A stretch of DNA of 49,533 bases, taken from the NCBI GenBank assembly GCA_002898775.1, contig BEHK01000002.1, forward strand, positions 1 to 49,533, given 5' to 3'. Under the pieces are notes generated by a model. The model was not told where the DNA came from, searched no databases, and saw nothing but the letters and a program-made list of their open reading frames with translations. This DNA comes from a bacterium HR08. Its GTDB lineage: Bacteria; Acidobacteriota; Blastocatellia; HR10. Positions 1-16,464 of this stretch are shown one piece after another; the stretch's first letter is position 1; every line of letters starts with the position of its first letter. Made by a program: the position numbers and the translations under genes.

Positions 1-334
1 TTTTTACATCGTCGGTCGGATCAAGGATGTGATCATCTCCGGTGGGGAGAACATCTACCCGGCGGAGGTCGAGAGCGTGATGCTGGGGCATCCGGATGTA
101 GCGGAGGCCGCGCTGATCGGGGTGCCGGATCCGGAGTGGGGGGAAGTCGGTCGGGCGATCGTCGTGCGCCGGCCGGGGAGCGCGCTGACGGAAGCCGAGC
201 TCCTGGCCTATCTGCGCTCTCGCCTCGCGAGTTACAAGGTGCCGAAATTCGTCGTCTTTGTCGAAGATCTGCCGAAAACCGGCGCCGGAAAAATTGATCG
301 AGCGATGCTCAGACGATGCTATGGGAACCAGTGA
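1..334 (+). CDS. Long-chain acyl-CoA synthetase / AMP-binding enzyme, C-terminal part (5'-truncated)
   Basis: FYIVGRIKDVIISGGENIYPAEVE...GVPDPEWGE...YKVPK...LPKTGAGKIDR are the conserved ANL-family C-terminal motifs. Confidence 0.92.
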   Translation, partial: FYIVGRIKDVIISGGENIYPAEVESVMLGHPDVAEAALIGVPDPEWGEVGRAIVVRRPGSALTEAELLAYLRSRLASYKVPKFVVFVEDLPKTGAGKIDRAMLRRCYGNQ

Positions 335-380
335 GAGAGGGTGAATGCGTCCTTCCGCAGATGCGCACTCGAGGAGAGAG

Positions 381-1403
381 ATGATGACGGTCATAAGTCT
401 TGCAGGACTTGGTCTGTATATCCCGGAACGCACGATGACGGCTGAGGAGTTGGCCGCGATCTCCGGGATCCCAGCCGAAGTGATCCGAACGAAGTTCGGG
501 TTGAATCGGAAGCATCTCGCCGACGTCGCTGGAAAGGGAGAGACCGTCTCCATGATGGCTGCTGAGGCTGGGCGGCGCGCCCTTCAGGACGCCGGAATAG
601 CTCCGGAGGAGGTCAACGCCTTGATTTACTTCGGGAGCATGCACAAGGACTACTACGTGTGGCTGGCCGCGCCGCGCATTCAGGAGCTTTTAGGAGCGCG
701 GCGCGCCTACGCGTTTGAAATCAGCGGAGCATCGGCCGGGCTTCCCTTCGCCTTGAAAGTGGCCCGAAGTATGATGCTCACGGATCCCGCCTTGCGCCAC
801 GTGCTGCTGGTGGCCGCTTCGACCGAGTCCATGCTCTTGGACTATACGAATCACCGTGCGCGCTTCATGTTCAACTTCGGCGATGGGGCCGCGGCGTGCC
901 TGCTCCGCCGCGATTTTCCCGTCAACATCGTCTTAGAATCCGCTTTCCTCACTGACGGCCGCTTCGCCGAATTCGTTCGCGTTCCGGCTGGAGGAGCCGT
1001 GCTCCCCCCTAGCCACGAGACCGTCGAGCGCCGTCTGCACGTTCTCGACGTCACGGATCCCGCGCGAATGAAAGAAATGCTCGATCCTATCTCACTAGAC
1101 AGCTTCGTGCGCGTTGTGCGAGAAGCCCTCGCCCGCAGTGGAGGCCTCCGTCCTGACTTCCTGATCCCCTTGCATACGAAACGCTCGCTCTTTGAGGCGC
1201 TACTGTCCGCACTCGGGCTGACGGAATCACAAGCGATCTACCTCTCGGATTACGGCCACCTCTCGGCAGCCGATCCGTTGCTCGGACTTCATCTGGCTCG
1301 GCAAGAGGGGCGATTGCGCGATGGGGACGTGGTGGTTCTGGTGAGCGCGGGGACCGGATACTCTTGGGGAGCAACGGTCATACGATGGGGGAGATTCGCA
1401 TGA
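381..1403 (+). CDS. 3-oxoacyl-ACP synthase III (FabH/KAS III)-like protein with Ser at the catalytic Cys position
   Basis: GLGLYIPE, AFEISGASAG, FNFGDGAAA, IPLH, DYGHLSAAD and SAGTGYSWGA thiolase-fold motifs; GAGGAG before ATG 381 (alternative start 345). Confidence 0.88.
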   Translation: MMTVISLAGLGLYIPERTMTAEELAAISGIPAEVIRTKFGLNRKHLADVAGKGETVSMMAAEAGRRALQDAGIAPEEVNALIYFGSMHKDYYVWLAAPRIQELLGARRAYAFEISGASAGLPFALKVARSMMLTDPALRHVLLVAASTESMLLDYTNHRARFMFNFGDGAAACLLRRDFPVNIVLESAFLTDGRFAEFVRVPAGGAVLPPSHETVERRLHVLDVTDPARMKEMLDPISLDSFVRVVREALARSGGLRPDFLIPLHTKRSLFEALLSALGLTESQAIYLSDYGHLSAADPLLGLHLARQEGRLRDGDVVVLVSAGTGYSWGATVIRWGRFA

Positions 1404-1804
1404 GCGACCTACGCATCGGTGCGAGCGCTTCCTGGTCGAAGACGATCACCATGGCCGACATTCGGGCTTTCGCCGCCCTCACCGGCGACGAGAACCCACT
1501 TCATGTGGACGAGGCTTTCGCTCAAACGACGCGCTTTGGCCGACCGATCGCTCACGGCATGCTGGTGGCGAGTTTGATCTCGACCGCGCTGAGCCGACAT
1601 CTTCCCGGACCGGGGACGATCTACCTCAGCCAGAGTCTCGAGTTCGTTCGCCCCGTCTATCCGGGCGATACGGTCACGGCCTTGGTGGAGGTGACCGAGA
1701 TCCGGGATGATAAGCCGGTGGTCACGCTGATCACGCGATGCGTGAACCAACATGGGGAAGAGGTCGTGCGCGGGAAGGCCGTCGTCCTCGCTCCCGGAAC
1801 ATGA
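1400..1804 (+). CDS. MaoC-family (R)-specific enoyl-CoA hydratase / dehydratase (PhaJ-like)
   Basis: FAALTGDENPLHVD and IAHGML, LPGPG, FVRPVYPGD motifs; ATGA overlap with the upstream stop. Confidence 0.92.
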   Translation: MSDLRIGASASWSKTITMADIRAFAALTGDENPLHVDEAFAQTTRFGRPIAHGMLVASLISTALSRHLPGPGTIYLSQSLEFVRPVYPGDTVTALVEVTEIRDDKPVVTLITRCVNQHGEEVVRGKAVVLAPGT

Positions 1805-1861
1805 CGCGTATGATGAGGATCTCATCGGACTCAAAGCGATGGCGGCCCTCGGCGGTCTACC

Positions 1862-1889
1862 TTGACAGGCCTCCATCCTCTGCTACGCT
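1862..1889 (+). promoter_or_regulatory. sigma70-type promoter of the tandem TetR gene (near-leaderless transcript)
   Basis: TTGACA (1862-1867), 16-nt spacer containing TG, TACGCT (1884-1889); ATG 9 nt downstream with no SD. Confidence 0.6.
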
Positions 1890-1898: not shown

Positions 1899-3164
1899 AT
1901 GGGACCGATGACGCGTGCGGCGAAAAAGACACGAGCGCCCTCGACCGCACGAGGTTTGGCGACGAGGGAGCGCCTTTTGGCTGCCGCCCAAGAGGTCTTC
2001 GCCGAGGGGAGCTATCATGAGGCGTCCGTCTCCGCCATCTGCCGCCGCGCGGGCGTCGCTCTCGGGACCTTCTACCAATACTTCGCCGATAAAGAGGCGA
2101 TCTTCTCCGAATTGGTCGCGCGCACCAGCATGGCCTTGCAGGCGGAGCTCACTCGTGCCCTGCACGCCGAAGGCGACCTTCGCGCGCAACTGGATCGCAT
2201 CCTGGCGACGTTCTTCGCCTTCATCCGTCACCATCGAGCCTCTTATCGGATCTTTCGAGAGGTGGAATTCATCAACGAGCGCATGCATCATCGGTTCTAC
2301 GACGGGCTCATCGCGCTCTTACGGGAATTCCTAGCCGAGCAACGTCGCCGCGGGCAGGTTCGCGCCCTCGATCCTGAGGTCGCCGCCCTCGCCCTTATCG
2401 GCGTGGCGTACTTCCTGACCCTTCGATGGCTCATCCTCGGTCCTGGCGAGGTCCCCGAATCCACTCGCCATACGGCCGTCGAGTTCCTCCTGTCTGGGAT
2501 CGATACCGGTCGTCCCCTCACCCCCTCTCCGCAACGCCCCACCAGCGCCACCTCATTCGGCGAAGTCACTTCGTCCTCTCCCGCGACGCGTGGCGCGCTC
2601 TCTCGCCAGAGACTGCTGCAAGCCGCCAGGACGTGCTTCAGCCGCAAGGGCTTCTACGCGACGTCCATCGCGGAGATCACCCGGCGCGCGGGCGTCTCCC
2701 TCGGAGCCTTCTATCTCTACTTCTCCAGCAAGACCGAGATCCTCGATGAGCTGGTTCGGGAGCTCAACGCACAACTACGCCGGAATGCTCGCGCGGCGAT
2801 CGCCGGCCTCACCGACCGCCGCGAGATCGAGCGCGAGGGCTTTCGCGCCTTCTTCCACTTCATCCGCCAAAATCGCGAGGCCTATCGCATCGTCCGCGAA
2901 GCCGAATTCGTCTCCCCCTCGGTCGCCCGCTGGTACTTCGAGCGATTAGCCCATGGATATGTCCGCGGACTCCAAGAAGGAATGCGTCGCGGAGAGATTC
3001 GCCCGCTTGACGCGGAGACCCTGGCGTATTGCCTCATGGGCATCGGTCACTTCGTGGGCTTGCGCTGGGTCGTCTGGTCCTCACGTCCCTCGCTTCCGAA
3101 GCGTGTCTTCGATCACGCCTTGGACTTAATCCTTCGTGGCTTGAAGGGCCCGCTCCCTGAATAG
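1899..3164 (+). CDS. Tandem (double-domain) TetR/AcrR-family transcriptional regulator
   Basis: Two HTH units (RERLLAAAQEVF...AGVALGTFYQYF and RQRLLQAARTCF...AGVSLGAFYLYF), each followed by a YRI.RE.EF ligand domain, joined by a Pro/Ser/Thr linker. Confidence 0.92.
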   Translation: MGPMTRAAKKTRAPSTARGLATRERLLAAAQEVFAEGSYHEASVSAICRRAGVALGTFYQYFADKEAIFSELVARTSMALQAELTRALHAEGDLRAQLDRILATFFAFIRHHRASYRIFREVEFINERMHHRFYDGLIALLREFLAEQRRRGQVRALDPEVAALALIGVAYFLTLRWLILGPGEVPESTRHTAVEFLLSGIDTGRPLTPSPQRPTSATSFGEVTSSSPATRGALSRQRLLQAARTCFSRKGFYATSIAEITRRAGVSLGAFYLYFSSKTEILDELVRELNAQLRRNARAAIAGLTDRREIEREGFRAFFHFIRQNREAYRIVREAEFVSPSVARWYFERLAHGYVRGLQEGMRRGEIRPLDAETLAYCLMGIGHFVGLRWVVWSSRPSLPKRVFDHALDLILRGLKGPLPE

Positions 3165-3292: not shown

Positions 3293-3333
3293 TTGACAGG
3301 TTGGACGACTTATGATATATGAATCGGGTCTCA
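3293..3333 (+). promoter_or_regulatory. Candidate promoter plus pseudo-palindromic operator of the TBDR/hydrolase operon
   Basis: TTGACA 3293-3298, AT-rich TATGATATATG 3311-3321 (imperfect -10 at 17 nt), TGAATCGGGTCTCA 3320-3333. Confidence 0.4.
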
Positions 3334-3360
3334 GAAATCGAGATTTTTGGAGGCCAAGAT

Positions 3361-4188
3361 ATGAACTTAGCTCATCGAGTGCTCGAACTCACGGTGACAG
3401 TGCTCATAGTGTCACTAGGCGTCGGGATGGCTCCGGCGCAGGGCGGTCCCCCCTCCCTGCTTCTTGAGGTCGCGCCGCCAGAGGCTGGTCCCATTGGCGG
3501 GAGCGTGCGCGTGGTGGGGATGGCGCCGAGTGTGGTGGACCTGAACGCGATTTTCAGCGGGCAGCTCATCAGTCCGATTCCGCTGGCCGGGCCGCCGCAG
3601 ATCAACATCGAGCCGCTGTTTGACGCCAGCGAGTTCCCCGATGGACCGCGACGCGTCACGCTGACCTACCGCCCGGTGACCATTCGGGCGAACACGCCGT
3701 TCATTCCAGGAGCCGTCGGGTGGGTGCTGCCGGCGCGTATCGGTTCGACGCTCACCCCCGAATCGTTTTTGCGTCGCTTCCTGAGCGATTACATCCTGGA
3801 GGTCAATGGCTTCAAGTTCGCCGACGAGGACCTCATCAAGCCGGAGAACGTCGTCTCCATCGGTCCGATTGACGGTGCGGTGGTCGGCTTCCCCGGTCAG
3901 ATGGTTCATATTTGGGCGGTCAATTTCTCGCAACGCATCAGTGAGCCGGGCACCTATCGGATTCGGAACAGCGTTCGGATCCCGAAAACGGAGCCCGCTC
4001 CCGAACTCGGGCTTTCGTTTCTCGCCGGCGAATTGATCATTGACATCACGATCAACATCCAACCCGTCGGTGCCGCGGCCGCCTCGGTTGGCCCTCAGCC
4101 GCCTGCACTGAACCATTGGGCGGCCATCGGCCAAATGCTGCGCGACGTTCAGGCGGCGCTCGGTGCTGATCCCCTGTCATGGAGGTGA
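3361..4188 (+). CDS. Secreted hypothetical protein (beta-strand-rich)
   Basis: GGAGG SD before ATG 3361; hydrophobic N-terminus ending APA-Q; stop 4 nt before the TBDR start; no family recognised. Confidence 0.75.
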   Translation: MNLAHRVLELTVTVLIVSLGVGMAPAQGGPPSLLLEVAPPEAGPIGGSVRVVGMAPSVVDLNAIFSGQLISPIPLAGPPQINIEPLFDASEFPDGPRRVTLTYRPVTIRANTPFIPGAVGWVLPARIGSTLTPESFLRRFLSDYILEVNGFKFADEDLIKPENVVSIGPIDGAVVGFPGQMVHIWAVNFSQRISEPGTYRIRNSVRIPKTEPAPELGLSFLAGELIIDITINIQPVGAAAASVGPQPPALNHWAAIGQMLRDVQAALGADPLSWR

Positions 4189-4192
4189 GAAG

Positions 4193-7100
4193 ATGAAGTT
4201 CAAACGACTTTCTCTCCTGTGCCTGATACTGGTTCTCTGCAGCAGCGGTCGCGCTGCTGCGCAATCAGCTTCGACCGGACAGATCACGGGGACCGTTCGG
4301 GACCCTTCGGGAGCCGTCCTCCCCGATGCGCTCGTGGTGGCGAAGAGCCCGACGGGTCTGGTTCGAGAAGTCCGCACGGATGAAGCCGGTCGCTATGTCA
4401 TCCCGCTCCTCCCTCCCGGCGTCTATCGGCTGGAGATCAGCCGTGCGGGATTCAAGACCTACGTGCTCGAAGACGTCACCGTGCGCCTCACCGAGACGAC
4501 GGTGGCCGACGCGAGCCTGGAGATCGGTGAACTCGCCGAGACGATCACCGTGGAGGCGGAGAATCCGCTGCTTCAAGCGGACCGGCCGACGACCGGGCGG
4601 GTGATCACGGGACGGGCGTTGACGGAACTGCCGCTCGCCACGCGCAATTTCACGCAACTGTTCGCCCTGACGGCGGGCACCAACGTGGATCTCCCCGATC
4701 ACTCGGCTGCGGGATTGAACACGCTCGACATCTCGGTCAACGGCCTGAACCGCTACAACAACAACTTCCAGCTCAACGGCATTGACACCAACGGCATCGG
4801 CATCAACAACGCCTTCAGCTATCCCGTCCCGGCGCCGGATGCCCTGCAGGAGTTCAAAGTCCAAACGAGCCTCTACGATGCCTCCTACGGCCGCAGCGCG
4901 GGCGGACAGATCGTCGTCGTCACGCGATCAGGGACGAACGAATTCCACGGCAGCTTTTATCATTTCCTGCGCAACGACAAGCTCAACGCTAACGACTTCT
5001 TCTTCAACAGTACAGGGACGCCCCGACCGAAATTCATTCGCAATCAGTTCGGGTTCACCCTCGGCGGCCCGATCTCCCGGGATCGAACGTATTTCTTCGG
5101 GTCGTATCAAGGCTCGCGGGAACGCAATGGAGCCGCTCGCGGGGCTCTCTCGACGTTGGCCTTGCCGCCCCTGCTGACGAACGATCGTTCCCCGGCGGGA
5201 ATCGCGCGCGCCTCGGGAGTCCCCGAAGCGGTCATCTCGCCGGTAGCCTTACGGCTCCTCAACGCGCGCCTGCCTGATGGCTCGCTGGTCATCCCCTCGC
5301 CTCAGGTGAACCGTCCGGGCGTAAATTATTCCGTCTCGGTCCCCATTCGCTTTCGGGAAGACCAGTTCACCGTCAACCTGGATCACCAACTCCGTGCCAA
5401 CAACAAGCTGAGCGGGAAGTTCTTCTTCACGCAGAATCCGGAGAAGGTCGGTCTCAACGTCTTCTTCGGCGCGAACGTGCCCGGATTCGGCTCCTCGCTG
5501 CAAAATAACAACCGACACCTGGCTCTGTCCGATCTCCATATCTTTGGTCCGAACTTGACCAACGAGGTGCGCGTCGGGCTGCATCGGCTGGCAGCAGATT
5601 TTCGTCCGAACGAGCCGATCACAGCGGCATCGGTCGGGATCTCGCGCTTCAACACCTCGATCTTTCCCGGCATTCCGACCATCGGCGTGCTCGGCAGCTT
5701 TCAAATCGGTCCCGGCCCCTTCGATCAGCTCTTCACCGTGATCAACACCTTCACCTATGCCGACACCATCTCCTACGTTCGCGGCCGTCATCACCTGCGG
5801 GTAGGAGTCGAAGTCCGTCGTCTTCAGGAGAACGGCGATTTGCCCTCGTTCCATCGCGGGCAAATTCTCTTCCTGGACTTCCCCTCGTTCGTGCGGGGCG
5901 ACATCTTTTTGACGCTTGTGGCCTCCGGCATCAGCGACTTTCATTATCGCAACACAGACTTCAACGCCTTCGTCCAAGACGATGTGAAAGTCAGCCCGCG
6001 CCTGACACTCAACCTCGGCCTGCGATACGAGTTCAACGGGGCGGCGTCGGACAAGTTCGGCCGGTTGCAGACGTTCGATCCCGCACAGTATCGTACCGGC
6101 CCTCCCCCCAATGGATTCGTGATCGCCGGCAATGCGAAGGGACGATTTCGGGTCCCCGGCGTCCCGTTGGTGAGCGACACGATCCTGAAGAGCGAGGACC
6201 CCAACAACTTTGCGCCTCGTTTCGGTTTCGCGTACAGACTCTCGGAGGCGCATCGTGTAGTCCTGCGTGGCGGGTATGGCATCTTCTTTGATCGGCTCTC
6301 GAATCAGCCTCCCTTCTTCGCCGTCGGGTCCATCCCCTTCGGAGCCTTTGACGTCGGCGTCTTCCCGACCGCGTTCCGTGGTGCGACGTTCGCCAATCCC
6401 TTCCCCAACCTCGGTCTGCCGAGCGAATTCCCGAAAGTCCCCATCGTTCCAAATGCCGCTCAGTTGGCGGCCGGAACGGCTCCCATCTCCGGCTTCTTCA
6501 TGGATCCGAACATGCGCACGCCCTACGCGCAACAATACAACCTGAACCTCCAATACGAGTTCGCCAAAGATTTTCTTCTGGAGATCGGCTACGTCGGGAC
6601 GAAAGGAACGAAGCTCATCCAGCAGGTGCGAATCGCGCAGGCGCAACTGGCCAGCCCATCGCGCCCGATCAACGGGATCACCGAAAATACGCCGGCCAAC
6701 GCCGTGCTGCGCTCCCGATTCCTGGGATTCTCTCCTGATGGACTGAAGCAGTTTCAAACGTCGGGCAATTCCACTTATCACTCGCTGCAGCTCACGGTGA
6801 CCAAGCGCCTCGGTCGCGGGCTTCAATTTCTGGCCGCGTATACGTTGAGCAAGTGGTTGGACGATCGAACCACGATCACGGGCTTGCAGGGCGATGCGAC
6901 GGCCTTCGCCCCCGGCGATCAATTCCATCTCTCGCTCAACAAAGGCCGGTCGGACCTCGATCGGCGCCATCGCCTGGTCGTCAGCGGGACATACGATTTC
7001 CCGACGATCGCAAAGCGTGGAGCGCTCGGCCATCTCCTCTCCGGCTGGGAGCTGGCTTGGATCGCCACATTCCAATCGGGCCGTCCCTTCAGCATCCTGG

Positions 7101-7501
7101 ACTCCAGCGGGGCGTCGCTCTTCGGCGTGACGACCTCGCGCGCGAGCTTCGCTCCGGGAGCGACGCTCAAGACGGCTCTCCGACAAGGGCCTGTGCACCG
7201 CCGTTTGAATCAGTTCTTCAATCCGGCGGCGTTCGTCACGGCGGGCCCGGGCTTTGGGAACGCCGGGCGGAATATCCTCACCGGGCCGGATCAGCGAAAC
7301 GTGGACCTATCGCTCCTCAAGCGAATTCCCGTTCGTGAGGGGCAATATCTGGAATTCCGCGCCGAGTTCTTCAACGCCTTCAATATCGTCAACTTCGCCA
7401 ATCCGGGGAGCGACATCGCCACGCCGGCGACCTTCGGGGTGATCACTCAAACGAGCACCAGTCCGCGCCTCGTTCAGTTCGCCCTGCGGTACAGCTTCTG
7501 A
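4193..7501 (+). CDS. TonB-dependent receptor, Oar-like, with N-terminal carboxypeptidase-regulatory-like domain
   Basis: Signal peptide, GQITGTVRDPSGAV, LQEFKVQTSLYDASYGRSAGG, SGTNEFHG, LTLNLGLRYE, NNFAPRFGFAY, C-terminal PRLVQFALRYSF. Confidence 0.95.
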   Translation: MKFKRLSLLCLILVLCSSGRAAAQSASTGQITGTVRDPSGAVLPDALVVAKSPTGLVREVRTDEAGRYVIPLLPPGVYRLEISRAGFKTYVLEDVTVRLTETTVADASLEIGELAETITVEAENPLLQADRPTTGRVITGRALTELPLATRNFTQLFALTAGTNVDLPDHSAAGLNTLDISVNGLNRYNNNFQLNGIDTNGIGINNAFSYPVPAPDALQEFKVQTSLYDASYGRSAGGQIVVVTRSGTNEFHGSFYHFLRNDKLNANDFFFNSTGTPRPKFIRNQFGFTLGGPISRDRTYFFGSYQGSRERNGAARGALSTLALPPLLTNDRSPAGIARASGVPEAVISPVALRLLNARLPDGSLVIPSPQVNRPGVNYSVSVPIRFREDQFTVNLDHQLRANNKLSGKFFFTQNPEKVGLNVFFGANVPGFGSSLQNNNRHLALSDLHIFGPNLTNEVRVGLHRLAADFRPNEPITAASVGISRFNTSIFPGIPTIGVLGSFQIGPGPFDQLFTVINTFTYADTISYVRGRHHLRVGVEVRRLQENGDLPSFHRGQILFLDFPSFVRGDIFLTLVASGISDFHYRNTDFNAFVQDDVKVSPRLTLNLGLRYEFNGAASDKFGRLQTFDPAQYRTGPPPNGFVIAGNAKGRFRVPGVPLVSDTILKSEDPNNFAPRFGFAYRLSEAHRVVLRGGYGIFFDRLSNQPPFFAVGSIPFGAFDVGVFPTAFRGATFANPFPNLGLPSEFPKVPIVPNAAQLAAGTAPISGFFMDPNMRTPYAQQYNLNLQYEFAKDFLLEIGYVGTKGTKLIQQVRIAQAQLASPSRPINGITENTPANAVLRSRFLGFSPDGLKQFQTSGNSTYHSLQLTVTKRLGRGLQFLAAYTLSKWLDDRTTITGLQGDATAFAPGDQFHLSLNKGRSDLDRRHRLVVSGTYDFPTIAKRGALGHLLSGWELAWIATFQSGRPFSILDSSGASLFGVTTSRASFAPGATLKTALRQGPVHRRLNQFFNPAAFVTAGPGFGNAGRNILTGPDQRNVDLSLLKRIPVREGQYLEFRAEFFNAFNIVNFANPGSDIATPATFGVITQTSTSPRLVQFALRYSF

Positions 7502-8299: not shown

Positions 8300-8301
8300 G
8301 T

Positions 8302-9546
8302 ATGCGCCTTCGAGTCTCCTTTCTATTCAGCGCCCTCGTGCTCGGCATCTCTTCCTCTTCGACCCGAGGAGGGTTAGGCGCTTCATCGCTCGTTTTGGAA
8401 GCGACGTTCACGAGCGTCGCCAACGGCTGGGTTAAGGTTGAGCGGTGGCGGGATATGAACCCGAATTTCATCCAAGAAGATTTCCCTCCTGATGGCCGCG
8501 GGGATCAGGATGGGCAACGGGCCACGTTCTTTGGGACCTCGCGACCGCACTCGAGTCAGTTTCTCCTCTACTATGCCCCAGGATGGGATACGAATCCGCG
8601 CCCCGTTCCCGTCCTGCTCGTCCACGGAGCGAACTATAATGCAGATCTGGCGTGGGCGAATCCCGCCGAAGCAGGACCGTATGCGTGCGGTGCGGCGACG
8701 TGTCCGTCCACGGGGCTCATGCAGTTTCTGAGCGCGCGCGGATATAAGGTCTTCGCCATCAATTTCCCCCATAGACAGGGGGATAATTACTTCTGGGCTC
8801 AACTGATTCGCGACGCCATTCAGGTGGTAAAAGCCAGAACCGGAGCGGCACATGTTGACATCGTCGCGTGGAGCAAAGGAGCCTTCGCAGCACGGATGTA
8901 CGTGAGCGGCGTTCGGACGTGGGGAGACGCTTATGCGAACGACGTGAGGAAACTCGTCCTGATAGGCAGCCCAAATGCGGGAACGGATTGGACATTCCGG
9001 CACGGATGGTCTCACAACTTTCTCATCTGGCCGGAGTGCGGGGGTCGCGTTAATGGGCCTTCCCCTCACACGGGGATGGTGTGTTGGGGACTCTGGAGAT
9101 TCCATCCGGAGCTCTCTGTGTATCGGACTCCAACGGGAGACTTCTTCCCCGGCGCGCGGCAGATGCTCGCACGTTGGGATGGCGTATACCCGCTTCCCTT
9201 GTGGGAACAAGACAGTTGGTCAACTTATTACGGCGGATGGGGAGTCTACACCTTCGGCTACGGGATTCAATTTGCCATAGATCAAGGCTCCCTCGTCTCT
9301 GCCGTATTGAATGCGAGTATCCCAGCGAGCGTGCAGGTGTATCTCCTCTCTGGAAATGCGGCCGATATTCCCGGCATTCACAACGAACACACCGGGCCTA
9401 GCGATGGCATTGTTTTCGTGGCCAGTTCTGCAAACACGCGGGGCATCAACACAGTGAGTGGCAACGTGATCCTTAATGGCCTGAATCATCTGAAATTGAT
9501 ATGGGCAGATGCAGCGATGAATCAAATCGAGAGCTGGCTTCAGTGA
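8302..9546 (+). CDS. Secreted lipase/esterase-fold hydrolase (candidate polyester depolymerase)
   Basis: Signal peptide; PVLLVHGAN, VDIVAWSKG nucleophile elbow, IGSPNAG, PSDGIV (Asp), LNHLKL (His); four Cys; Trp/Tyr-rich. Confidence 0.85.
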   Translation: MRLRVSFLFSALVLGISSSSTRGGLGASSLVLEATFTSVANGWVKVERWRDMNPNFIQEDFPPDGRGDQDGQRATFFGTSRPHSSQFLLYYAPGWDTNPRPVPVLLVHGANYNADLAWANPAEAGPYACGAATCPSTGLMQFLSARGYKVFAINFPHRQGDNYFWAQLIRDAIQVVKARTGAAHVDIVAWSKGAFAARMYVSGVRTWGDAYANDVRKLVLIGSPNAGTDWTFRHGWSHNFLIWPECGGRVNGPSPHTGMVCWGLWRFHPELSVYRTPTGDFFPGARQMLARWDGVYPLPLWEQDSWSTYYGGWGVYTFGYGIQFAIDQGSLVSAVLNASIPASVQVYLLSGNAADIPGIHNEHTGPSDGIVFVASSANTRGINTVSGNVILNGLNHLKLIWADAAMNQIESWLQ

Positions 9547-9676: not shown

Positions 9677-12600
9677 ATGTTGAAACGAGCATCTTCTGCT
9701 CTCGGCTGTGTGATGCTTCTGTTAGGAAGCATCTCCGCAGGGATGGCCCAAACCGCCTCCACCGGGCAGATCGTCGGGACGGTGCGAGATCAAACGGGCG
9801 CCGTGATTCCGGACGTGACCGTCGTGGTGACGGAAACGTTGACGGGCGCCCGGCGGGAGACGAAAACCGATGCCTCGGGCGGCTATGCGGTGCCGCTTCT
9901 GCCGCCGGGCGTCTACACGGTGGAATTCAGCCGCGAGGGGTTTCGTCGGCTCGTCCGGGAAAACGTCGCCGTGCGCATCACGCTGACAACGACGGTGGAT
10001 GTGACGCTGGAGGTCGCGCCGCTCGGTGCGGAGACCGTCACCGTGACGGAAGAAGCGCCGCTGTTGCAAACGGATCGCCCGACGACCGGTCGCGTGATCG
10101 AAGAACGCGCGATCCGGCAACTGCCGTTGGCCACGCGCAATTTCCAACAACTGCTGGCGCTCTCGCCGGGCACGCTCGCCTCGGTCGTGCGCAACACGGA
10201 CGTAGGTCGCGGCGATGCCATCATTCAGGTCAACGGTCAGCGCCAGACGCAAAACAACTTGCAGATCAACGGCGTGGATGCGAATTCCATCGCCCTGCAC
10301 TCGACGTTTAACCTGCCCGTTCCGGCAACGGAAGCCATCCAAGAGTTCATCGTCCAGACGAGCCTCTACGATGCGTCGCAAGGGCGCAATAGCGGAGGGG
10401 TCATCGCCGCCGTCACCAAATCCGGCACGAACGAATTTCACGGCAACGTCTACGAGTTCCTCCGCAACCGCGTGCTCAACGCCAACGATTTCTTCCTGAA
10501 TGCTTCCGGCCAGAAACGTCCGATTCTCACGCGCAACCAGTTCGGCTTCACACTGGGCGGACCCGTCGTCAGAGACAAAACGTTCTTCTTCGTCTCCTAC
10601 CAAGGCACGCGCGAGCGCAACGGCGCTTCGCTCATCAACAGCGTGACGAGCGTGATCCTGCCTTCGGCCCTGACCGACAACCGCAGTGCCGAAGCGCTGG
10701 CGGCAGTCGGCAATACGCTCTTGCCCGCGGGGGTGACGCCGCTCCGCCCCTCCGACATTCATCCGGTCGCGCTCGCTCTGCTCAACGCGCGCTTCCCCGA
10801 TGGGCGCCTGGTCATTCCGAGTCCGCCGCCCGGCTCGGCCGGCCCCCTCACCACGCTCACGCAATCGGGCCTCTCGCGCTTCCGCGAAGATCAATTCAAC
10901 GCCAATCTCGATCATCGCCTCACCGCCAACAATACGCTCTCGGGCAAGTTCTTCTTCAACAATGACACCACCGATGCGGCCATCACTTCGTTTGTGATTC
11001 GTCCGGCCAATGCCGTGCTCGGCTGGGGCGGGCCGCTCGAGCGCAATAACCGCGTCTTCTCGCTGCGTGATACGCTCGTCCTCACGCCGACGCTCCTCAA
11101 TGAGGCGCGTTTCGGCTACGCGCGCATCTTCCTCGAAGCTGTCCCTCGTGAGCCCTTCACAGCGGCTCAGTTCGGAATCGAGAGCCCGCTCCGGATGCTC
11201 TTCCCTGGCCTGCCGCAGATCAACGTCTTCGGCCTGTTCACCCTCGGTCCGGAAGGGCTCTTTGATGCCGAGGTCGTCCAGGAGCATTTCACCTATGGGA
11301 ATACGCTCACCTGGACGAGAGGACGACACACGCTTCGCGCGGGGTTCGAGGGGCGACACTATCCGTTCCTGCTCCGATTCCGACTGTGGAACCGCGGGTT
11401 CGTGCAGTTCCTCAACTTCGTGGATTTCCTCCAAGGCGACATGTTCATTTCGTTCATCGGCTCGGGCGATCCCGAGCGCGAGCCCCGCATTCGCGATCTG
11501 GCGGCCTTCGTGCAGGAAGATTTCAAGGTCACGGATCGGCTGACGCTCAATCTCGGCCTTCGATACGAGCTGCTCGGCTACATGAGCGAAGTGCGCGGGC
11601 GGTTGGTCGGCTTCTTCCCCGATCAATACCGATCGGGGGCTCCGCCGAACGGTTTTGTGCTCGCGGGGAATGCCACGGTCTCGCTCCCCAACGTGCCGCT
11701 GGTCGAGAAGACCCTCATTCCTCAGGATGAGAACAACTGGGCGCCGCGCTTCGGTATGGCCTGGCGGCTTCATGATCGCCTCGTCCTGCGCGGTGGCTAT
11801 GGCATCTACTTCATCCGCACATCGGGACAGATCGGCGGAGGGATTCAACTCTTCAACTACCCGTTCTTCGTCCTGCCGGTCGGGGCCGGATCGCGCCTCT
11901 TGCAATCGCTCGGATTTCCATTGCCGGTGGCCCGCACGCTCGGCCTGCCGTTCAACCGCCCCTTCCTTCAGGTACCGCCGCCGTCGGCCTTCCCCGTCGT
12001 TCCGACGATCCCGTCACCGTTGCGGGATCAATTCGGCAATCCCATCCCCATCTCGGGCGTCTATCTGGATCGCGGATTCCGTACTCCCTACACCCATCAG
12101 TTCGGATTGAACCTGCAATGGGAGATAGCCCGCTCGCTGCTTCTCGAAATCGGATACACGGGGACGCGAGGGATCAAGCTCACGCAGCTCTTCAACCTCA
12201 ATCAGCCCGTCTTCGACCGAGCGGCGGGGCGGTTCATTACCCCCCTGCCGGCGTTCTCCAACAATGGGAACATCGCCGCGGGCTTGCACCTGATCCAGAC
12301 GACGGGACAATCCTATTACCACTCGCTGCAACTCTCAGCCACTAAGCGCCTGAGTCGCGGATTGTCCTTCCTGGCGTCCTACACGCTCAGCAAATCCATA
12401 GATACGAACTCCGGCCCGTTGGCCGGTGATCTGGCCGCCAATCCCGGCGATCAACAGAACCATCGTCTGAATCGCGGGCCCTCGGATTGGGATCGGACGC
12501 ACCGGTTCGTCTACAGCTTCGTGTACGACCTGCCGAAATTCTACGATGGTGATTCGGGCCTCGGGCGACGGCTGCTCAACGACTGGCAGATCGCGGGCGT

Positions 12601-13048
12601 GGCTGTCTTTCAATCCGGGACGCCTTTCACCGTCTTCGCTACCGGAGGAGGTGGCGGCATGAATCTGACGCGCGCCAATTTCGCGCCGGGATTCCGCGGA
12701 TCGGCCGAACTGAGCGGTTCGGTCACGGCTCGCCTCACGCGCTTTTTCAACACGGCCGCCTTCGTCCCGCCGCTTGGCGCGACCTTCGATCCGAATGCTC
12801 CCTTCGGCAACACAGGAAGGAACATCTTGCGCGGACCGGACCAGCGCAACGTGGATTTCTCGATCATCAAGTTCATCCCCATCACCGAGAGAACGCGCGT
12901 GGAGTTCCGCACCGAGTTCTTCAATCTGACGAACACGCCCAGCTTCGCCAATCCCGATTCGAACGTGCTCTCTTCGGCGTTCGGCCGGATCTCGAGCACG
13001 AGCACGGGCCCGCGCGTGATTCAGTTCGCGCTGAAGCTCAACTGGTGA
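9677..13048 (+). CDS. TonB-dependent receptor, Oar-like (paralogue of 4193-7501)
   Basis: Signal peptide, GQIVGTVRDQTGAV, IQEFIVQTSLYDASQGRNSGG, SGTNEFHG, LTLNLGLRYE, C-terminal PRVIQFALKLNW. Confidence 0.95.
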   Translation: MLKRASSALGCVMLLLGSISAGMAQTASTGQIVGTVRDQTGAVIPDVTVVVTETLTGARRETKTDASGGYAVPLLPPGVYTVEFSREGFRRLVRENVAVRITLTTTVDVTLEVAPLGAETVTVTEEAPLLQTDRPTTGRVIEERAIRQLPLATRNFQQLLALSPGTLASVVRNTDVGRGDAIIQVNGQRQTQNNLQINGVDANSIALHSTFNLPVPATEAIQEFIVQTSLYDASQGRNSGGVIAAVTKSGTNEFHGNVYEFLRNRVLNANDFFLNASGQKRPILTRNQFGFTLGGPVVRDKTFFFVSYQGTRERNGASLINSVTSVILPSALTDNRSAEALAAVGNTLLPAGVTPLRPSDIHPVALALLNARFPDGRLVIPSPPPGSAGPLTTLTQSGLSRFREDQFNANLDHRLTANNTLSGKFFFNNDTTDAAITSFVIRPANAVLGWGGPLERNNRVFSLRDTLVLTPTLLNEARFGYARIFLEAVPREPFTAAQFGIESPLRMLFPGLPQINVFGLFTLGPEGLFDAEVVQEHFTYGNTLTWTRGRHTLRAGFEGRHYPFLLRFRLWNRGFVQFLNFVDFLQGDMFISFIGSGDPEREPRIRDLAAFVQEDFKVTDRLTLNLGLRYELLGYMSEVRGRLVGFFPDQYRSGAPPNGFVLAGNATVSLPNVPLVEKTLIPQDENNWAPRFGMAWRLHDRLVLRGGYGIYFIRTSGQIGGGIQLFNYPFFVLPVGAGSRLLQSLGFPLPVARTLGLPFNRPFLQVPPPSAFPVVPTIPSPLRDQFGNPIPISGVYLDRGFRTPYTHQFGLNLQWEIARSLLLEIGYTGTRGIKLTQLFNLNQPVFDRAAGRFITPLPAFSNNGNIAAGLHLIQTTGQSYYHSLQLSATKRLSRGLSFLASYTLSKSIDTNSGPLAGDLAANPGDQQNHRLNRGPSDWDRTHRFVYSFVYDLPKFYDGDSGLGRRLLNDWQIAGVAVFQSGTPFTVFATGGGGGMNLTRANFAPGFRGSAELSGSVTARLTRFFNTAAFVPPLGATFDPNAPFGNTGRNILRGPDQRNVDFSIIKFIPITERTRVEFRTEFFNLTNTPSFANPDSNVLSSAFGRISSTSTGPRVIQFALKLNW

Positions 13049-13127
13049 TGGAGCGTGGACTTGTGGCATGTTCTCCGCGTGGGGTAAAAATGGGGGGAGT
13101 GAATCATACCCTGTCGGAGGTGTGACC

Positions 13128-14552
13128 ATGATGAAAGAGTATCCCCTTCTGCTGGGGGGCGAGCCGAGGTATTCGGGAGCGAAGGTGGAGCTTCGGGATC
13201 CGTACGATCGCTCGGTGATCGGCGTGGTCCATTGGGCGTCGGCGGAGGAGGCGGCCGAGGCTGTGGCGGGAGCCATGCGCGCGTTTGAGGAGACGCGGCA
13301 GCTGCCGTCGCATGCGCGGGCGGAGGTTCTGCGGCGCGTGGCGGCGGAGTTGAGCCAGCGGCGGGAGGAGCTGGCTCAGCTCATCACTCGCGAGGCGGGC
13401 AAGCCGATTCGGGACGCGCGCCTGGAGGTGGCGCGCGCCATCCAGACCTTCACCGTGGCGGCCGAGGAGGCCAAGCGCATGGGTGGGGAGGTGCTGCCCC
13501 TGGATTGGATGGCGGGTTCGGAGAACCGATGGGCGCTCGTGCGTCGCTTCCCCATCGGGCCTATTCTGGGCATCACGCCGTTTAATTTCCCGCTCAATCT
13601 GGTGGCGCACAAGGTGGCGCCAGCGCTCGCCTCGGGCAATCCGATCATCATCAAACCGGCGCCGCAGACGCCGCTCTCGGCGCTGGCGCTAGGGGAGATT
13701 GTGGTTCGAGCGGGATGGCCGCGCGGGGGGATCAGCGTCCTGCCGTGCGCGAATGAGGTGGTGGCTGAGCTGCTGCGGGACGAGCGAATCCGGATGCTCT
13801 CGTTCACAGGCAGCGCGGAGGTCGGCTGGAGGCTGAAGGCACAGGTGCCGAAGAAGCGAGTGACGCTGGAGCTCGGGGGGAATGCCGCCGTCCTCGTGCA
13901 CGAGGATGCCGATCTGGAGTACGCGGCGCGGCGAGCGGTGCACGGGGGCTTCACTTATGCGGGACAGACGTGCATCTCGGTGCAGCGGATTCTCGTCCAT
14001 GAGGCAGTGAGTGAGCCCTTCCTGATCCGATTCCTAGAGGGGGTGCGGAATCTGGTCGTGGGGGATCCGAAGGAGGAGGCGACCGACGTGGGGCCGATGA
14101 TCAGCGAGGCGGCCGCCGAGCGGGCCGAACAGTGGATTCGGGAGGCCGTCGCCGCGGGAGCGCGCGTGTTGGTGGGCGGCGAGCGGCATGGGGCCTTTCT
14201 GATGCCGACGGTGCTCGCCGATGCGCCGCCGGAGACGAAGGTCTGGAGCGAGGAGGTGTTCGCCCCCGTGGTGGTGGTGAACCGATACGCCGATTTCGAG
14301 GAGGCTTTGCGACAGGTCAACGCCTCGCGCTATGGGCTTCAGGCCGGCCTCTTCACCCGCGACGTGCGGCGCATCTTCCGGGCCTATGAGGTCCTGGAGG
14401 TCGGCGGGCTCATCGTCAACGAGGTGCCCACCTATCGCGCCGATCACATGCCCTACGGCGGCGTGAAGGACTCCGGCTTCGGCCGCGAAGGCGTGCGCGC
14501 CGCCATCCAGGAGATGACCGAACCCCGCCTCCTCGCCCTGAACCTGAATTGA
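13128..14552 (+). CDS. NAD(P)-dependent aldehyde dehydrogenase
   Basis: ITPFNFPLN, FTGS, LELGGN (Glu), GQTCIS (Cys), EEVFAP, PYGGVKDSGFGREG; GGAGG before ATG 13128. Confidence 0.95.
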   Translation: MMKEYPLLLGGEPRYSGAKVELRDPYDRSVIGVVHWASAEEAAEAVAGAMRAFEETRQLPSHARAEVLRRVAAELSQRREELAQLITREAGKPIRDARLEVARAIQTFTVAAEEAKRMGGEVLPLDWMAGSENRWALVRRFPIGPILGITPFNFPLNLVAHKVAPALASGNPIIIKPAPQTPLSALALGEIVVRAGWPRGGISVLPCANEVVAELLRDERIRMLSFTGSAEVGWRLKAQVPKKRVTLELGGNAAVLVHEDADLEYAARRAVHGGFTYAGQTCISVQRILVHEAVSEPFLIRFLEGVRNLVVGDPKEEATDVGPMISEAAAERAEQWIREAVAAGARVLVGGERHGAFLMPTVLADAPPETKVWSEEVFAPVVVVNRYADFEEALRQVNASRYGLQAGLFTRDVRRIFRAYEVLEVGGLIVNEVPTYRADHMPYGGVKDSGFGREGVRAAIQEMTEPRLLALNLN

Positions 14553-14556
14553 AGAG

Positions 14557-15363
14557 ATGCCACGCACACGGGTCAATGGGATCGAGCTGTATTACGAAGT
14601 CCACGGCGCCGGGGAGCCGCTGCTCCTGATCGCCGGACTCGGATTCGGCGCCTGGAGCTGGTTCCGCCAATTCCCGGATTTCTCGCGGGAGTTCCTGACT
14701 ATCGCTTTCGACAATCGGGGAGCAGGTCTCTCGGAGAAGCCTGAGGGCGACTACACCATTGAGATGATGGCCGAAGACGCCGCAGGACTCCTTCGCGCGC
14801 TGAACGTGGAGCGGGCCCACGTGCTCGGTCATTCGATGGGGGGATACATCGCGCAAGAGCTGGCGCTTCGTCATCCCGACGTCGTCGCCAAACTCGTCCT
14901 GGTCTCGACGAGCTTTGGAGGGAAGAACGCCGTGCTCATGTCTCCCGAAACAGCAGCGCAGATGCGCTCGGAGCTGGAGGCTATGGGTGAGGAGAAGGAG
15001 AGAGCCTTGCGTCGCGGCCTGGTGCTGCGGTTCAGCGAACGATTCCTCGCCGAGCATTCGGAGATCGTCGAAGAATTCCTCGCGCGGCGCAAGGCCCATC
15101 TCCCCCCGGCGGATGCGTGGCAGCGGCAATTCGCCGCCTGCCTCCGCTTTGAGACCGAATCGCGTTTGAGCGCGCTTCGCGCGCCGACGCTGATTTTGAC
15201 CGGCAGCGACGACCCGATCGTCCCGCCGGAGAACTCCTTCCGACTCACTCGTGCCATCGCAGGAGCTCATCTGGTCATCTTTCCCGGAGCGCGCCACCTC
15301 GTCTTCATCGAGCGCGCGGAGGATTTCAATCGCCTCGTCATGGAATTCGTGAAAGGAGCGTGA
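14557..15363 (+). CDS. alpha/beta-fold hydrolase (enol-lactonase/esterase-like)
   Basis: FDNRGAGLS, GHSMGG, GSDDPIVP, GARHLVFIE. Confidence 0.92.
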   Translation: MPRTRVNGIELYYEVHGAGEPLLLIAGLGFGAWSWFRQFPDFSREFLTIAFDNRGAGLSEKPEGDYTIEMMAEDAAGLLRALNVERAHVLGHSMGGYIAQELALRHPDVVAKLVLVSTSFGGKNAVLMSPETAAQMRSELEAMGEEKERALRRGLVLRFSERFLAEHSEIVEEFLARRKAHLPPADAWQRQFAACLRFETESRLSALRAPTLILTGSDDPIVPPENSFRLTRAIAGAHLVIFPGARHLVFIERAEDFNRLVMEFVKGA

Positions 15364-15366
15364 AGG

Positions 15367-16464
15367 ATGAGAACTGCGAAAGCGGCGGTCATGCCGGACT
15401 TCCACCGTCCCCTGGAGATCCGCGAGTATCCTCTGCCGGAGGCGTTGGACCCCGGCATGGTGCTCGTTCGCGTCGAGATGGCCGGCATCTGCGGAACGGA
15501 TGTCCATCTCTGGAAAGGGCAACTTCCGATCCCGCGTCCGCTCATCCTCGGCCACGAGACCGTGGGGACGATTGTGAAACTGGGCGAGGGAGTGACGACG
15601 GATTGGACCGGGGTGCCCTTGAGCGAAGGCGATCGCGTGACGTGGTATGCCGGGCGCTTGTGCGGCCAATGCTTCTACTGCGTGCGCAAGCGACAACCCA
15701 CGCGCTGTCTCAAGCGCCGAGCCTACGGTATCACGTATGCCTGCGACACTCCTCCGCACTTCCTCGGCGGCTACGCGGAATATCACGTGCTGCTCCCGGG
15801 ATCGGCGATCTTCAAACTGACGGATCTCTCCACGGAGATGGTCATCGGCGCCGGATGCGCGCTCAACACGGCTGTTCACGGCATCGAGCGCGTGGGGATC
15901 AGTTGGGGAGACATCGTCGTCATTCAGGGGAGCGGTCCCGTGGGCCTGGCCGCGCTCGCCGTGGCGAAAACCGCCGGCGCTCACCTCACGATCGTGATCG
16001 GTGGCCCGGCGCACCGGTTGGAGTTGGCCAAACAATTCGGGGCCGATCAGACGATCTCCATCGAGGACGTGCCCGATCCGGGAGAACGAATCGAACGCGT
16101 GCGATCGCTCTCCGGCGGCTATGGGGCCGATGTCGTCATCGAATGCGTGGGGATCCCCAGCGCGGTCGCGGAAGGATGGGAGATGTGTCGCGATGGGGGG
16201 AAGTATCTGGTGCTCGGCCACTACGGCGACGCGGGCCCGACGGCGCTCAATCCTCATGTGATCACGCGCAAGCAGCTGACCGTCTACGGCTCGTGGGCGA
16301 GCGAACCCCGCCACATGGCCATGGCGCTGGAGTTCCTGAGGCGAGCGGGCGATCGCTTTCCCTTCGATCGTTTGGTCTCGCACCGCTTTTCGTTGGACCG
16401 AGCGGCCGAAGCCCTCGAAGCGACAGCGCGTTGGACATCAATCAAAAGCGCGATCGTCCCCTGA
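15367..16464 (+). CDS. Zinc-dependent alcohol dehydrogenase (MDR family)
   Basis: GICGTD, LGHE, CGQCFYC...C structural Zn site, GSGPVG Rossmann motif. Confidence 0.95.
   Translation: MRTAKAAVMPDFHRPLEIREYPLPEALDPGMVLVRVEMAGICGTDVHLWKGQLPIPRPLILGHETVGTIVKLGEGVTTDWTGVPLSEGDRVTWYAGRLCGQCFYCVRKRQPTRCLKRRAYGITYACDTPPHFLGGYAEYHVLLPGSAIFKLTDLSTEMVIGAGCALNTAVHGIERVGISWGDIVVIQGSGPVGLAALAVAKTAGAHLTIVIGGPAHRLELAKQFGADQTISIEDVPDPGERIERVRSLSGGYGADVVIECVGIPSAVAEGWEMCRDGGKYLVLGHYGDAGPTALNPHVITRKQLTVYGSWASEPRHMAMALEFLRRAGDRFPFDRLVSHRFSLDRAAEALEATARWTSIKSAIVP

Follow-up and report, generated by a model that had tools for sequence, protein, structure and literature searches.

What might a bacterium import through a gene cluster in which two TonB-dependent receptors (TBDRs) stand among esterases and enzymes of acyl-coenzyme A (acyl-CoA) metabolism? 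Such a cluster opens contig BEHK01000002.1 of bacterium HR08 (Acidobacteriota, class Blastocatellia; assembly GCA_002898775.1), and the first 49,533 bases of this contig (C2 of genome G000, a bin of 2.6 Mb and 73% completeness) form the stretch of DNA analysed here, which we call the window. An earlier note on this DNA had described a locus resembling a polysaccharide utilisation locus (PUL), built on two TBDRs and devoted to esters or polyesters. Our analysis favours the view that the locus serves TonB-dependent scavenging of ester-linked acyl or (R)-3-hydroxyacyl compounds, as a variant of an operon found across the class Blastocatellia; judged by protein sequences and gene order, we consider this reading probable, though well short of certain.

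Pfam and NCBIfam profile scans of the twelve proteins upheld the domain calls of the earlier note, and the twelve genes occupy positions 1-16464 at the places it gave, all on the + strand:

2..334, + strand: acyl-CoA ligase, C-terminal piece of 110 aa (AMP-binding_C PF13193, 91 bits), cut by the contig start
345..1403, + strand: thiolase-fold enzyme resembling beta-ketoacyl-acyl carrier protein synthase III (KAS III-like; NF005308/PRK06840, 428.7 bits against a cut-off of 315)
1364..1804, + strand: predicted PhaJ-type (R)-specific enoyl-CoA hydratase, MaoC (PF01575, 93.8 bits); likely start 1385 or 1400
1899..3164, + strand: double TetR regulator, 421 aa, with two TetR_N domains in one chain
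3319..4188, + strand: Unk289, exported protein with a hydrophobic N-terminus and no family; likely start 3361
4163..7501, + strand: TBDR1, Oar-type TBDR (PF25183 at 692 bits, PF13620, Plug); likely start 4193
7514..8299, + strand: Est1, cytoplasmic alpha/beta hydrolase (PF00561, 136 bits), no signal peptide
8296..9546, + strand: Lip, Lipase_2-clan serine hydrolase with a signal-peptide-like N-terminus (PF01674, 34.0 bits against 20.3); likely start 8302
9677..13048, + strand: TBDR2, Oar-type TBDR (PF25183, 670 bits)
13068..14552, + strand: aldehyde dehydrogenase (ALDH; Aldedh PF00171, 502 bits)
14557..15363, + strand: Est2, cytoplasmic alpha/beta hydrolase (PF00561, 121 bits), no signal peptide
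15367..16464, + strand: Zn-dependent alcohol dehydrogenase (Zn-ADH; PF00107 and PF08240)

The listed open reading frames (ORFs) overlap or are separated by gaps of 2-154 nt. The cluster ends before a convergent gltB on the minus strand (16488-21092). On its other side it extends beyond the contig start: a third alpha/beta hydrolase (Est3) and a full 505-aa ligase stand ahead of the KAS III-like gene in sister genomes. The reported absence of glycoside hydrolases stands, and the Pfam scan found no polysaccharide lyase or carbohydrate esterase domain in any of the twelve genes either.

The evidence that carries our reading comes from the receptors and the company they keep. Both TBDRs (1,110-1,120 aa) show the Oar-type arrangement of a PF13620 domain (78 and 73 bits) followed by PF25183. 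Searching 151 genomes of the class Blastocatellia with TBDR2 gave matches at E <= 1e-200 in 46, and among the best 30 loci 23 came from other genera. Relatives with 46-59% identity to TBDR2, found throughout the class, have TetR, esterase, KAS III-like and ligase genes as neighbours. Within 1.5-kb flanks of the 23 loci, TetR and KAS III-like genes were each present at 14, an Est2-like hydrolase after the TBDR at 11 and a ligase at 9, and any one of the four at 21 of 23, counts that overstate independence because the genomes are relatives of each other. The remaining two loci (G008 and G010) had Unk289 plus ALDH or PhaR in their flanks and, further along, Est2 with ADH, or Est2 with KAS III-like and ligase genes. 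As a control, a homologue of a partner gene lay within 3 kb of only 1 of 20 other Oar-type TBDR loci of G000.

Three genomes (G401, G219 and G334; G+C 0.52-0.56) carry the full operon of TetR, TBDR, esterase, KAS III-like gene, ligase, esterase, MaoC and major facilitator superfamily (MFS) transporter, and a fourth (G417; G+C 0.42) carries this set minus the first esterase. Variants were found in G023 (PhaR, ligase, esterase, KAS III-like, ligase, TBDR), in G008 (Unk289, a TBDR2 87% identical to ours, ALDH, Est2, ADH, MFS) and in G010, where a divergent PhaR is followed by TBDR, an Unk289-like gene, a different Lipase_2 protein of 456 aa, esterase, KAS III-like gene and ligase; a class III PhaC gene (TIGR01836, 367.7 bits against 365.3) lies about 4 kb beyond the G010 operon. 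The Lipase_2 protein of G010 (locus L149 on contig C90, 11747-13117) is exported, scores 72 bits against PF01674, bears an N-terminal Pur_ac_phosph_N-like domain and occupies Lip's place after the TBDR and Unk289-like genes, with PhaR divergent upstream. We read the window locus as a rearranged, expanded form of this Blastocatellia operon (TetR or PhaR, TBDR, esterase, KAS III-like, ligase, esterase, PhaJ, MFS). In a quick maximum-likelihood tree with long outgroup branches, TBDR1 (3 rows) was sister to the TBDR2 clade (20 rows), and the two together split from five other G000 TBDRs with an SH-aLRT support of 100. Since every conserved partner works on acyl thioesters or esters, we interpret this clade of receptors as importing acyl or hydroxyacyl compounds in ester linkage, or the corresponding acids.

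A synteny search had been named beforehand as the check on the grouping, to be abandoned if no co-occurrence recurred in other genomes. Co-occurrence was found both around the receptor clade, at the 21 of 23 loci above, and around Lip, where ligase and KAS III-like genes accompany 21 of 80 loci (below). We therefore regard the genes as a recurring functional unit.

As to the receptor complement of the genome at large, PF25183 gave 73 matches in G000, in about 48 distinct open frames over 2.6 Mb, 19 of which span the whole barrel model. This TBDR density is unusually high for a 3-Mb genome. Another lipid-related TBDR locus may lie on contig C7 of G000 (11805-42856), where a second ligase neighbours two additional Oar-type TBDR genes and a series of genes for thiolases and acyl-CoA dehydrogenases.

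The acyl-CoA enzymes themselves could be placed with varying precision. The ligase piece shares 89% identity with the terminal part of an AMP-binding protein of 505 aa in sister genome G002; its best NCBIfam families stayed under their cut-offs (PRK06839, 466 against 748; PRK06187, 446 against 476), and a search of the other contig ends of G000 for the absent N-terminus gave paralogues only. The hydratase matched PDB 1iq6 over its full length (137 bits, residues 15-144) and 5cpg at 118 bits. It consists of a single MaoC hot-dog domain, and its translation contains the stretch FAALTGDENPLHVDEAFA, whose GDENPLH we assign to the hydratase-2 motif, with its catalytic Asp and His. By these features the protein is a predicted PhaJ-type hydratase, as had been proposed.

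The FabH-like call of the earlier note held for the fold family and failed for the active site. Aligned to E. coli FabH (1ebl), the enzyme has Ser130 for Cys112 and His305 for Asn274, and His277 falls one position off His244, giving a triad of Ser130-His277-His305 in place of Cys-His-Asn. The Ser-His-His set is kept in all five sister orthologues (81-97% identity), and to judge from these residues the enzyme is not a canonical FabH. A Ser-His-His triad on a thiolase fold is also found in DpsC, a priming ketosynthase/acyltransferase (PMC9573744). The window enzyme differs from DpsC-type proteins in scoring only 50-52 bits against DpsC structures, in belonging to NF005308/PRK06840 and in having no polyketide synthase (PKS) context. 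A full-text literature search under the family name 'PRK06840' found no paper.

The C-terminal half of the double TetR regulator was most similar to PDB 6el2 (142 bits), which we take to be the acyl-CoA-binding FadR of Sulfolobus acidocaldarius. Its matches to FasR, Bacillus FadR and KstR2 were weaker (6o6n, 47.8 bits; 3whb, 42 bits; 5gp9 within the same 42-48 bits), and the double-TetR protein Mce3R (9b7y) reached only 39 bits. In this half the regulator resembles acyl-CoA-sensing TetRs, with acyl-CoA binding putative. The N-terminal half hit the ScbR autoregulator-binding family (114.9 bits against a cut-off of 150).

Is the whole locus one conserved unit? We laid the window proteins on the double-TetR regions of six sister genomes (G001-G006) and obtained a genus core in the order Est3, full ligase, KAS III-like, MaoC, double TetR, a variable slot, TBDR2, ALDH, Est2 and ADH. 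Most or all of this set is kept in 6/6, with the double TetR at 64-92% identity and TBDR2 orthologues at 84-95%. Est3 and/or the ligase were seen upstream only where the fetched stretch extended far enough, and gltB adjoins the core in G002, G004 and G005, the three whose stretch reached that far. No homologue of the ligase, KAS III-like enzyme or MaoC was found beside the TetR of G006.

The slot between the double TetR and TBDR2 (window 3165-9676) is a hot spot of gain and loss, with four contents in the seven genomes of the genus. It is empty in G004, G005 and G006; it holds TBDR1 and Est1 in G002, other genes followed by Unk289 and Est1 in G001, and Unk289, TBDR1, Est1 and Lip in G003 as in the window. 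TBDR1 thus occurs among the six sisters in G002 and G003 only, and Lip in one of six. From these contents it follows that TBDR1 and Lip are accessory rather than the foundation of the locus. The statement that the locus is built on two TBDRs must accordingly be given up: TBDR2 alone belongs to the core, and TBDR1, Est1, Lip and Unk289 form a strain-variable cassette.

Metagenomic reads added a further variant. A contig of run X3 joins 3080 to 4268, skipping Unk289, a fifth slot variant. Contigs of run X1 matching 1-3080 and 10133-17000 (90-95% identity) turn into unlike sequence at 3080 and at about 10020, and separate contigs cover 3496-10162 with none joining across, which is a weak hint of a related strain without the cassette. 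The Lip region 8506-9639 was uncovered in runs X3 and X12, which says nothing on its absence. X12 is an RNA library with contigs of a 90-95% identical relative over 5778-8211 and 10672-12692, and does not show transcription. Two runs labelled hot-springs metagenomes contain 0.54 and 0.43 of the sampled words of the stretch; this match is not independent support, because one run may be the source sample.

The exported hydrolase of the cassette, Lip, belongs to a widespread family of proteins of about 415 aa, with 682 matches at E <= 0.001. The best 120 of these are 55-100% identical (55-75% across phyla), include Chloroflexota, Paenibacillus, Brevibacillus, Rubrobacter and many actinomycetes, and are labelled in their sources just 'lipase' or 'esterase/lipase family protein'. 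Lip exceeds the gathering score of PF01674 and has the conserved Ser-Asp-His triad of the Lipase_2 clan. Ser191, Asp368, His396 and four cysteines were invariant in an alignment of 13 sequences (A1); in one of 51 (A2) the triad, Cys129 and Cys134 were invariant and Cys246 and Cys261 nearly so. All aligned members have a hydrophobic N-terminus. Ser191 matches the nucleophile position of LipA. The nucleophile elbow reads (A/G)WSKG rather than AHSMG, the pentapeptide of family I.4 lipases and PhaZ7 (PMC5171882).

Structural comparison did not single out a substrate. A PDB profile search placed LipA-type lipases (33-39 bits) above PhaZ7 (25-26 bits), all weak scores. For the AlphaFold model of Lip (predicted local distance difference test, pLDDT, 92.8), VIA-align ranked BlEst2 (Z 22.4), MAJ1 (21.8) and MAS1 (21.5) first, then monoglyceride lipases and CALB, in a flat list falling to Z 18.6 over 50 entries; Foldseek gave query-normalised TM-scores of at most 0.45, with lipases, Lin2722, PhaZ7 and LCAT intermixed. 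By its conserved residues Lip is predicted to be a serine esterase or lipase that is exported and belongs to an uncharacterised family; the modelled fold does not disclose its substrate. In a diderm host it may act in the periplasm instead of outside the cell.

Does Lip keep the same company beyond the genus? We scanned one genome per species, confirmed 310 relatives and analysed the best 80 loci within 7 kb of Lip. An acyl-CoA ligase was found at 29 of 80 loci and a KAS III-like gene at 21, all 21 of which had both, spread over 14 of 32 genus-level groups, drawn up by record title, in four phyla (Acidobacteriota, Chloroflexota, Bacillota and Actinomycetota). Other neighbours were alpha/beta hydrolases (42/80), MFS transporters (15/80), FabG-like short-chain dehydrogenases/reductases (SDRs; 14/80), Liv-type ATP-binding cassette (ABC) ATPases (11/80), TetR (9/80) and MaoC (4/80). 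At selected loci the same roles are filled by non-orthologous genes: MaoC or FabG (in other phyla an equivalog at 318 bits against 296), TetR or a BTAD regulator (BTAD/SARP-type in Paenibacillus and one Chloroflexota version), KAS III-like enzymes of two types, neither of them typical, and ligases of two types. The transporters match the cell envelope, TBDR plus MFS in diderms and Liv-type ABC or MFS in other phyla.

Several Lip loci hold genes of polyhydroxyalkanoate (PHA) metabolism. In the Chloroflexota locus L044 an extracellular type-1 short-chain-length (scl) PHA depolymerase (6721-8400; NF050058, 295 bits against 150) lies two genes from Lip, between two alpha/beta hydrolases, with Lip, a ligase, a FabG-like SDR and a KAS III-like gene adjoining. 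A class III PhaC-like gene stands directly upstream of Lip in the acidobacterial loci G039, G035, L087 and L037 (353-355 bits against a cut-off of 365.3 in the two scanned), and i_nPHAscl is the best though failing model for recurrent hydrolases of 357-371 aa as well as for Est1. Small ORFs without a family also recur in related operons, one of 110 aa (L009 9576-9908, also in L087 and G467) and one of 195 aa (L149 6487-7074).

Among Acidobacteriota, Lip was found in 1 of 401 sampled genomes, that one being G000, so the acidobacterial synteny of Lip rests on few genomes and metagenome-assembled genomes (MAGs); among 41 relatives, full-length matches were confined to G000, G003, G039 and G035. 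Outside the genus Lip is nearest to metagenomic proteins (75% and 71%), then to a Chloroflexus bin (71%) and an Anaerolineales bin (68%); its identity to other Acidobacteriota is lower (50-61%). For MaoC (57-58%) and the C-terminal piece of the ligase (53-56%), too, the closest sequences are Chloroflexota versions. This shared similarity of three proteins suggests lateral transfer between mat-dwelling phyla.

The remaining enzymes proved harder to assign. The earlier note's esterases are indeed alpha/beta hydrolases, but generic ones: neither Est1 nor Est2 passed a curated equivalog model, and both are best described from their sequences as generic alpha/beta hydrolases. For Est1 the top NCBIfam family was i_nPHAscl (133 bits against a cut-off of 300), and its best PDB matches were 6i8w (99 bits) and, for its N-terminal half alone, 8ynv (93.6 bits), a PHB depolymerase of the Bacillus type. 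Est2 matched 6eb3, a metagenomic esterase itself named 'Est1' (207.6 bits), for which a full-text search on 6EB3 and esterase found no paper. The intracellular scl-PHA depolymerase model NF050089 (cut-off 300) gave 133.3 bits for Est1 and 63.8 for Est2. ALDH is nearest ALDH21 and succinate-semialdehyde or lactaldehyde dehydrogenases (PDB 5mz5, 456 bits) and passed no NCBIfam equivalog; ADH is nearest an uncharacterised Thermotoga Zn-ADH (PDB 1vj0, 211 bits) and reached 226 bits against TIGR03366, cut-off 328. Both genes are confined to the window's genus plus one other genome (G008). The exported protein Unk289 matched no Pfam or NCBIfam family and has 16 homologues only, the three with a source name being Blastocatellia or Acidobacteria MAGs. 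Its predicted model is an N-terminal helix and a beta-sandwich (pLDDT 83), with no structural match by Foldseek (E >= 0.011) or VIA (best Z 4.0).

What route could these proteins form? Reading each step from sequence and synteny, we propose that Lip, where present, would act outside the cytoplasm, cleaving an ester substrate that is large or insoluble, and that TBDR2 and TBDR1 would bring the products across the outer membrane, possibly assisted by the exported beta-sandwich protein Unk289. In the cytoplasm Est1 and Est2 (with Est3 in sister genomes) would complete ester hydrolysis, Zn-ADH and ALDH could oxidise the alcohol moiety in the window's genus and G008, and the ligase would trap the acid as acyl-CoA. 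The PhaJ-type hydratase could then turn (R)-3-hydroxyacyl-CoA into enoyl-CoA for beta-oxidation, for which G000 has six acyl-CoA dehydrogenase hits over cut-off, plus thiolases. The Ser-His-His KAS III-like enzyme may take acyl-CoA as acyl donor, and the double TetR would de-repress the locus when acyl-CoA appears. The alcohol-to-acid oxidation of the earlier note becomes a lineage-specific add-on, because the two dehydrogenases are confined to the genus and one further genome and their relatives use small polar substrates.

Of the candidate substrates we put (R)-3-hydroxyacyl esters, PHA-type or derived from lipids, first by a narrow margin, with neutral lipids a close second. For a hydroxyacyl or PHA substrate speak the PhaJ-type enzyme, the alternation of MaoC and FabG between lineages, PhaR at the loci of G023, G010 and G035, the PhaC-like genes adjoining Lip, the true PHA depolymerase beside Lip in L044 and the i_nPHAscl model as the top, failing, match of Est1. 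For ordinary lipids speak the lipases among the structural neighbours of Lip and the FadR-like TetR, and the missing inner-membrane transporter would fit vectorial acylation of fatty acids. PhaC (TIGR01836) occurs at or near related loci in G010, G039 and G023, and in PhaC-bearing relatives the PhaC/PhaJ context would fit storage of lipids as PHA just as well.

A bolder version would make the TBDR1/TBDR2 clade importers of PHA oligomers or (R)-3-hydroxyalkanoate esters, and the (A/G)WSKG Lip family new exported depolymerases of PHA or hydroxyacyl esters acting as a public good, a role suggested because Lip is present in some and absent in other strains of one hot-spring genus. If true, Lip would be made by few strains and exploited by many that have the uptake and processing core only. 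We advance this as a tentative proposal that is more probably wrong than right.

Several results weigh against scavenging of esters as we propose it, and some of them bear hardest on the PHA version. The three hydrolases fail every curated PHA-depolymerase model among the NCBIfam models used (133/300, 27.5/450, the latter being Lip against the PhaZ7 model NF050060, and 68.8/250.6). PhaZ7 is absent from the 50 best structural neighbours of Lip and true lipases are among them. PhaC (TIGR01836) and PhaR were not found in G000 (73% complete) or G001 (98% complete). Ligase, KAS III-like gene and alpha/beta hydrolase are all absent near Lip at 33 of 80 loci, mostly in Nonomuraea, Planotetraspora and other actinomycetes, and the genomes behind all such counts are relatives, not independent samples. 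Small polar aldehydes and alcohols are the substrates of the nearest ALDH and ADH relatives, the window locus encodes no inner-membrane transporter, and the KAS III-like enzyme has no explained role in a catabolic route.

The alternative that survives best is anabolic salvage, in which imported free fatty or hydroxy-fatty acids would feed the cell's own fatty-acid synthesis, or PHA synthesis in PhaC-bearing relatives. The ligase would form acyl-CoA, a DpsC-like KAS III would prime or transfer the acyl group to acyl carrier protein (ACP), and PhaJ or FabG would give (R)-3-hydroxyacyl intermediates. Such a scheme would suit the Ser-His-His triad shared with DpsC, the FabG equivalog that replaces MaoC in other phyla and the class III PhaC-like gene and PhaR in or near the locus in four lineages, and has a precedent in a Pseudomonas aeruginosa KAS III that reportedly shunts octanoyl-CoA into fatty-acid synthesis. 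It leaves the 3-4 hydrolases per locus, ALDH and ADH superfluous, however, as free acids would need none of them; neither PhaC nor PhaR was found in the two searched genomes of the window's genus, no ACP gene was found in the window locus, and the TetR is as similar to regulators of fatty-acid degradation as to those of synthesis. We consider anabolic salvage unlikely, if still a serious competitor of ester scavenging.

The product of the cluster might instead be a signal or secondary metabolite of lipid-like nature (an alkyl-pyrone, beta-lactone, olefin or butyrolactone-type autoinducer, for instance), with the ligase, KAS III-like enzyme, hydratase and an alpha/beta hydrolase as its makers, the TetR as sensor and the TBDR re-importing the product. 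Trios of ligase, thiolase-fold enzyme and alpha/beta hydrolase occur in OleABCD and beta-lactone clusters, and the ScbR-family hit of the TetR N-terminal half and the BTAD/SARP-type regulators of Paenibacillus and one Chloroflexota version would suit such a product. Yet neither the KAS III-like protein nor the ligase passed the NCBIfam models for OleA, OleC, DarB or StlD, no PKS or non-ribosomal peptide synthetase gene was found in the window locus, any more than one for ACP, every lineage has import-type transporters and an exported hydrolase rich in disulfides, and both PhaJ and the FadR-like TetR speak for primary metabolism of acyl-CoA; this origin is very improbable. Least credible of all is that unrelated small operons lie co-oriented by chance: a genome with some 48 TBDR-type frames in 2.6 Mb will not rarely have one beside any given gene, gaps of 94-154 nt permit at least four transcription units, and a promoter and terminator scan of 1-17000 yielded no informative consensus (0 promoter-like sites with 2.4 expected, 6 terminator-like sites with 12.4 expected), but the same roles beside the receptor clade at 21 of the 23 loci from outside the genus, such neighbours at only 1 of 20 other TBDR loci of G000 and a core kept in 6/6 sister genomes disfavour it strongly.

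The remainder of the window consists of unrelated housekeeping genes. Three further proteins outside the locus and unrelated to it are a 1,110-aa protein of PD40 repeats and an amidohydrolase domain (26393-29725, + strand), an 837-aa protein of the penicillin-amidase family (34980-37493, - strand) and a 987-aa Ser/Thr kinase fused to PD40 repeats (39989-42952, - strand).

Returning to TonB-dependent scavenging of acyl esters, what would the locus add to what is known? To our knowledge, Acidobacteria carry dozens of Oar-type TBDRs per genome, almost none with an assigned substrate. Here one well-supported receptor clade is tied to acyl-CoA metabolism through class-wide synteny, and that tie makes the receptor substrate testable. 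A widely spread family of exported hydrolases is also defined, along with its conserved partners: a ligase, an atypical KAS III-like enzyme, and either PhaJ or FabG. The organisation into core and cassette could explain a division of labour in the degradation of storage lipids or polyesters in microbial mats. Full-text searches of the literature, supplements not covered, found no description of a TBDR in the uptake of PHA or lipid-ester oligomers, nor of such a locus.

Against the SusC/SusD PULs of Bacteroidota, the likeness lies in a TBDR beside exported and intracellular hydrolases, a dedicated regulator and strain-variable accessory enzymes. However, the window TBDRs matched no NCBIfam model at E <= 0.001, hence none for SusC/RagA; no SusD family was found in the twelve genes, and the adjoining Unk289 has neither family nor fold match; the locus lacks carbohydrate-active enzymes (CAZymes) and its downstream metabolism runs through acyl-CoA. 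All three defining tests (SusC/RagA, SusD, CAZyme) failed, and the locus is not a SusC/SusD PUL, so that the PUL label of the earlier note does not apply in its defined sense.

An acyl-CoA ligase is said to be present also in the polyethylene glycol (PEG) operon of sphingomonads. That operon comprises the TBDR PegB, the dehydrogenase PegA, the aldehyde dehydrogenase PegC and the permease PegD (PMC11644497), and thus resembles the window locus in coupling a TBDR to alcohol and aldehyde oxidation for a non-carbohydrate polymer. Its dehydrogenase is FAD-dependent whereas the window's is a Zn-ADH, its regulator is of another type, and its description includes no esterases, KAS III-like enzyme or PhaJ. 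The FadL/FadD/FadR system has in common with the window locus a protein for entry through the outer membrane, an acyl-CoA ligase and a repressor, putative here, that responds to acyl-CoA; the window locus differs in having an energised TBDR in place of the FadL channel, hydrolases as part of the unit, and a regulator that is a fused double TetR of Mce3R-like architecture, which the low score against 9b7y tempers.

With PhaJ/PhaC/PhaR and the PHA depolymerases the locus shares a PhaJ-type hydratase, PhaC-like genes and PhaR at related loci, the membership of Lip in the Lipase_2 clan alongside PhaZ7 and the top family of Est1; it departs from them in scores far under every cut-off, in the (A/G)WSKG motif and the absence of PhaZ7 from the 50 best structural neighbours of Lip, and in a genus without PhaC or PhaR in the two genomes searched. 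Set beside all of these systems, the locus is best read as a class-wide, receptor-clade-specific operon for acyl or ester utilisation, with strain-variable exo-hydrolase cassettes and an uncharacterised hydrolase family.

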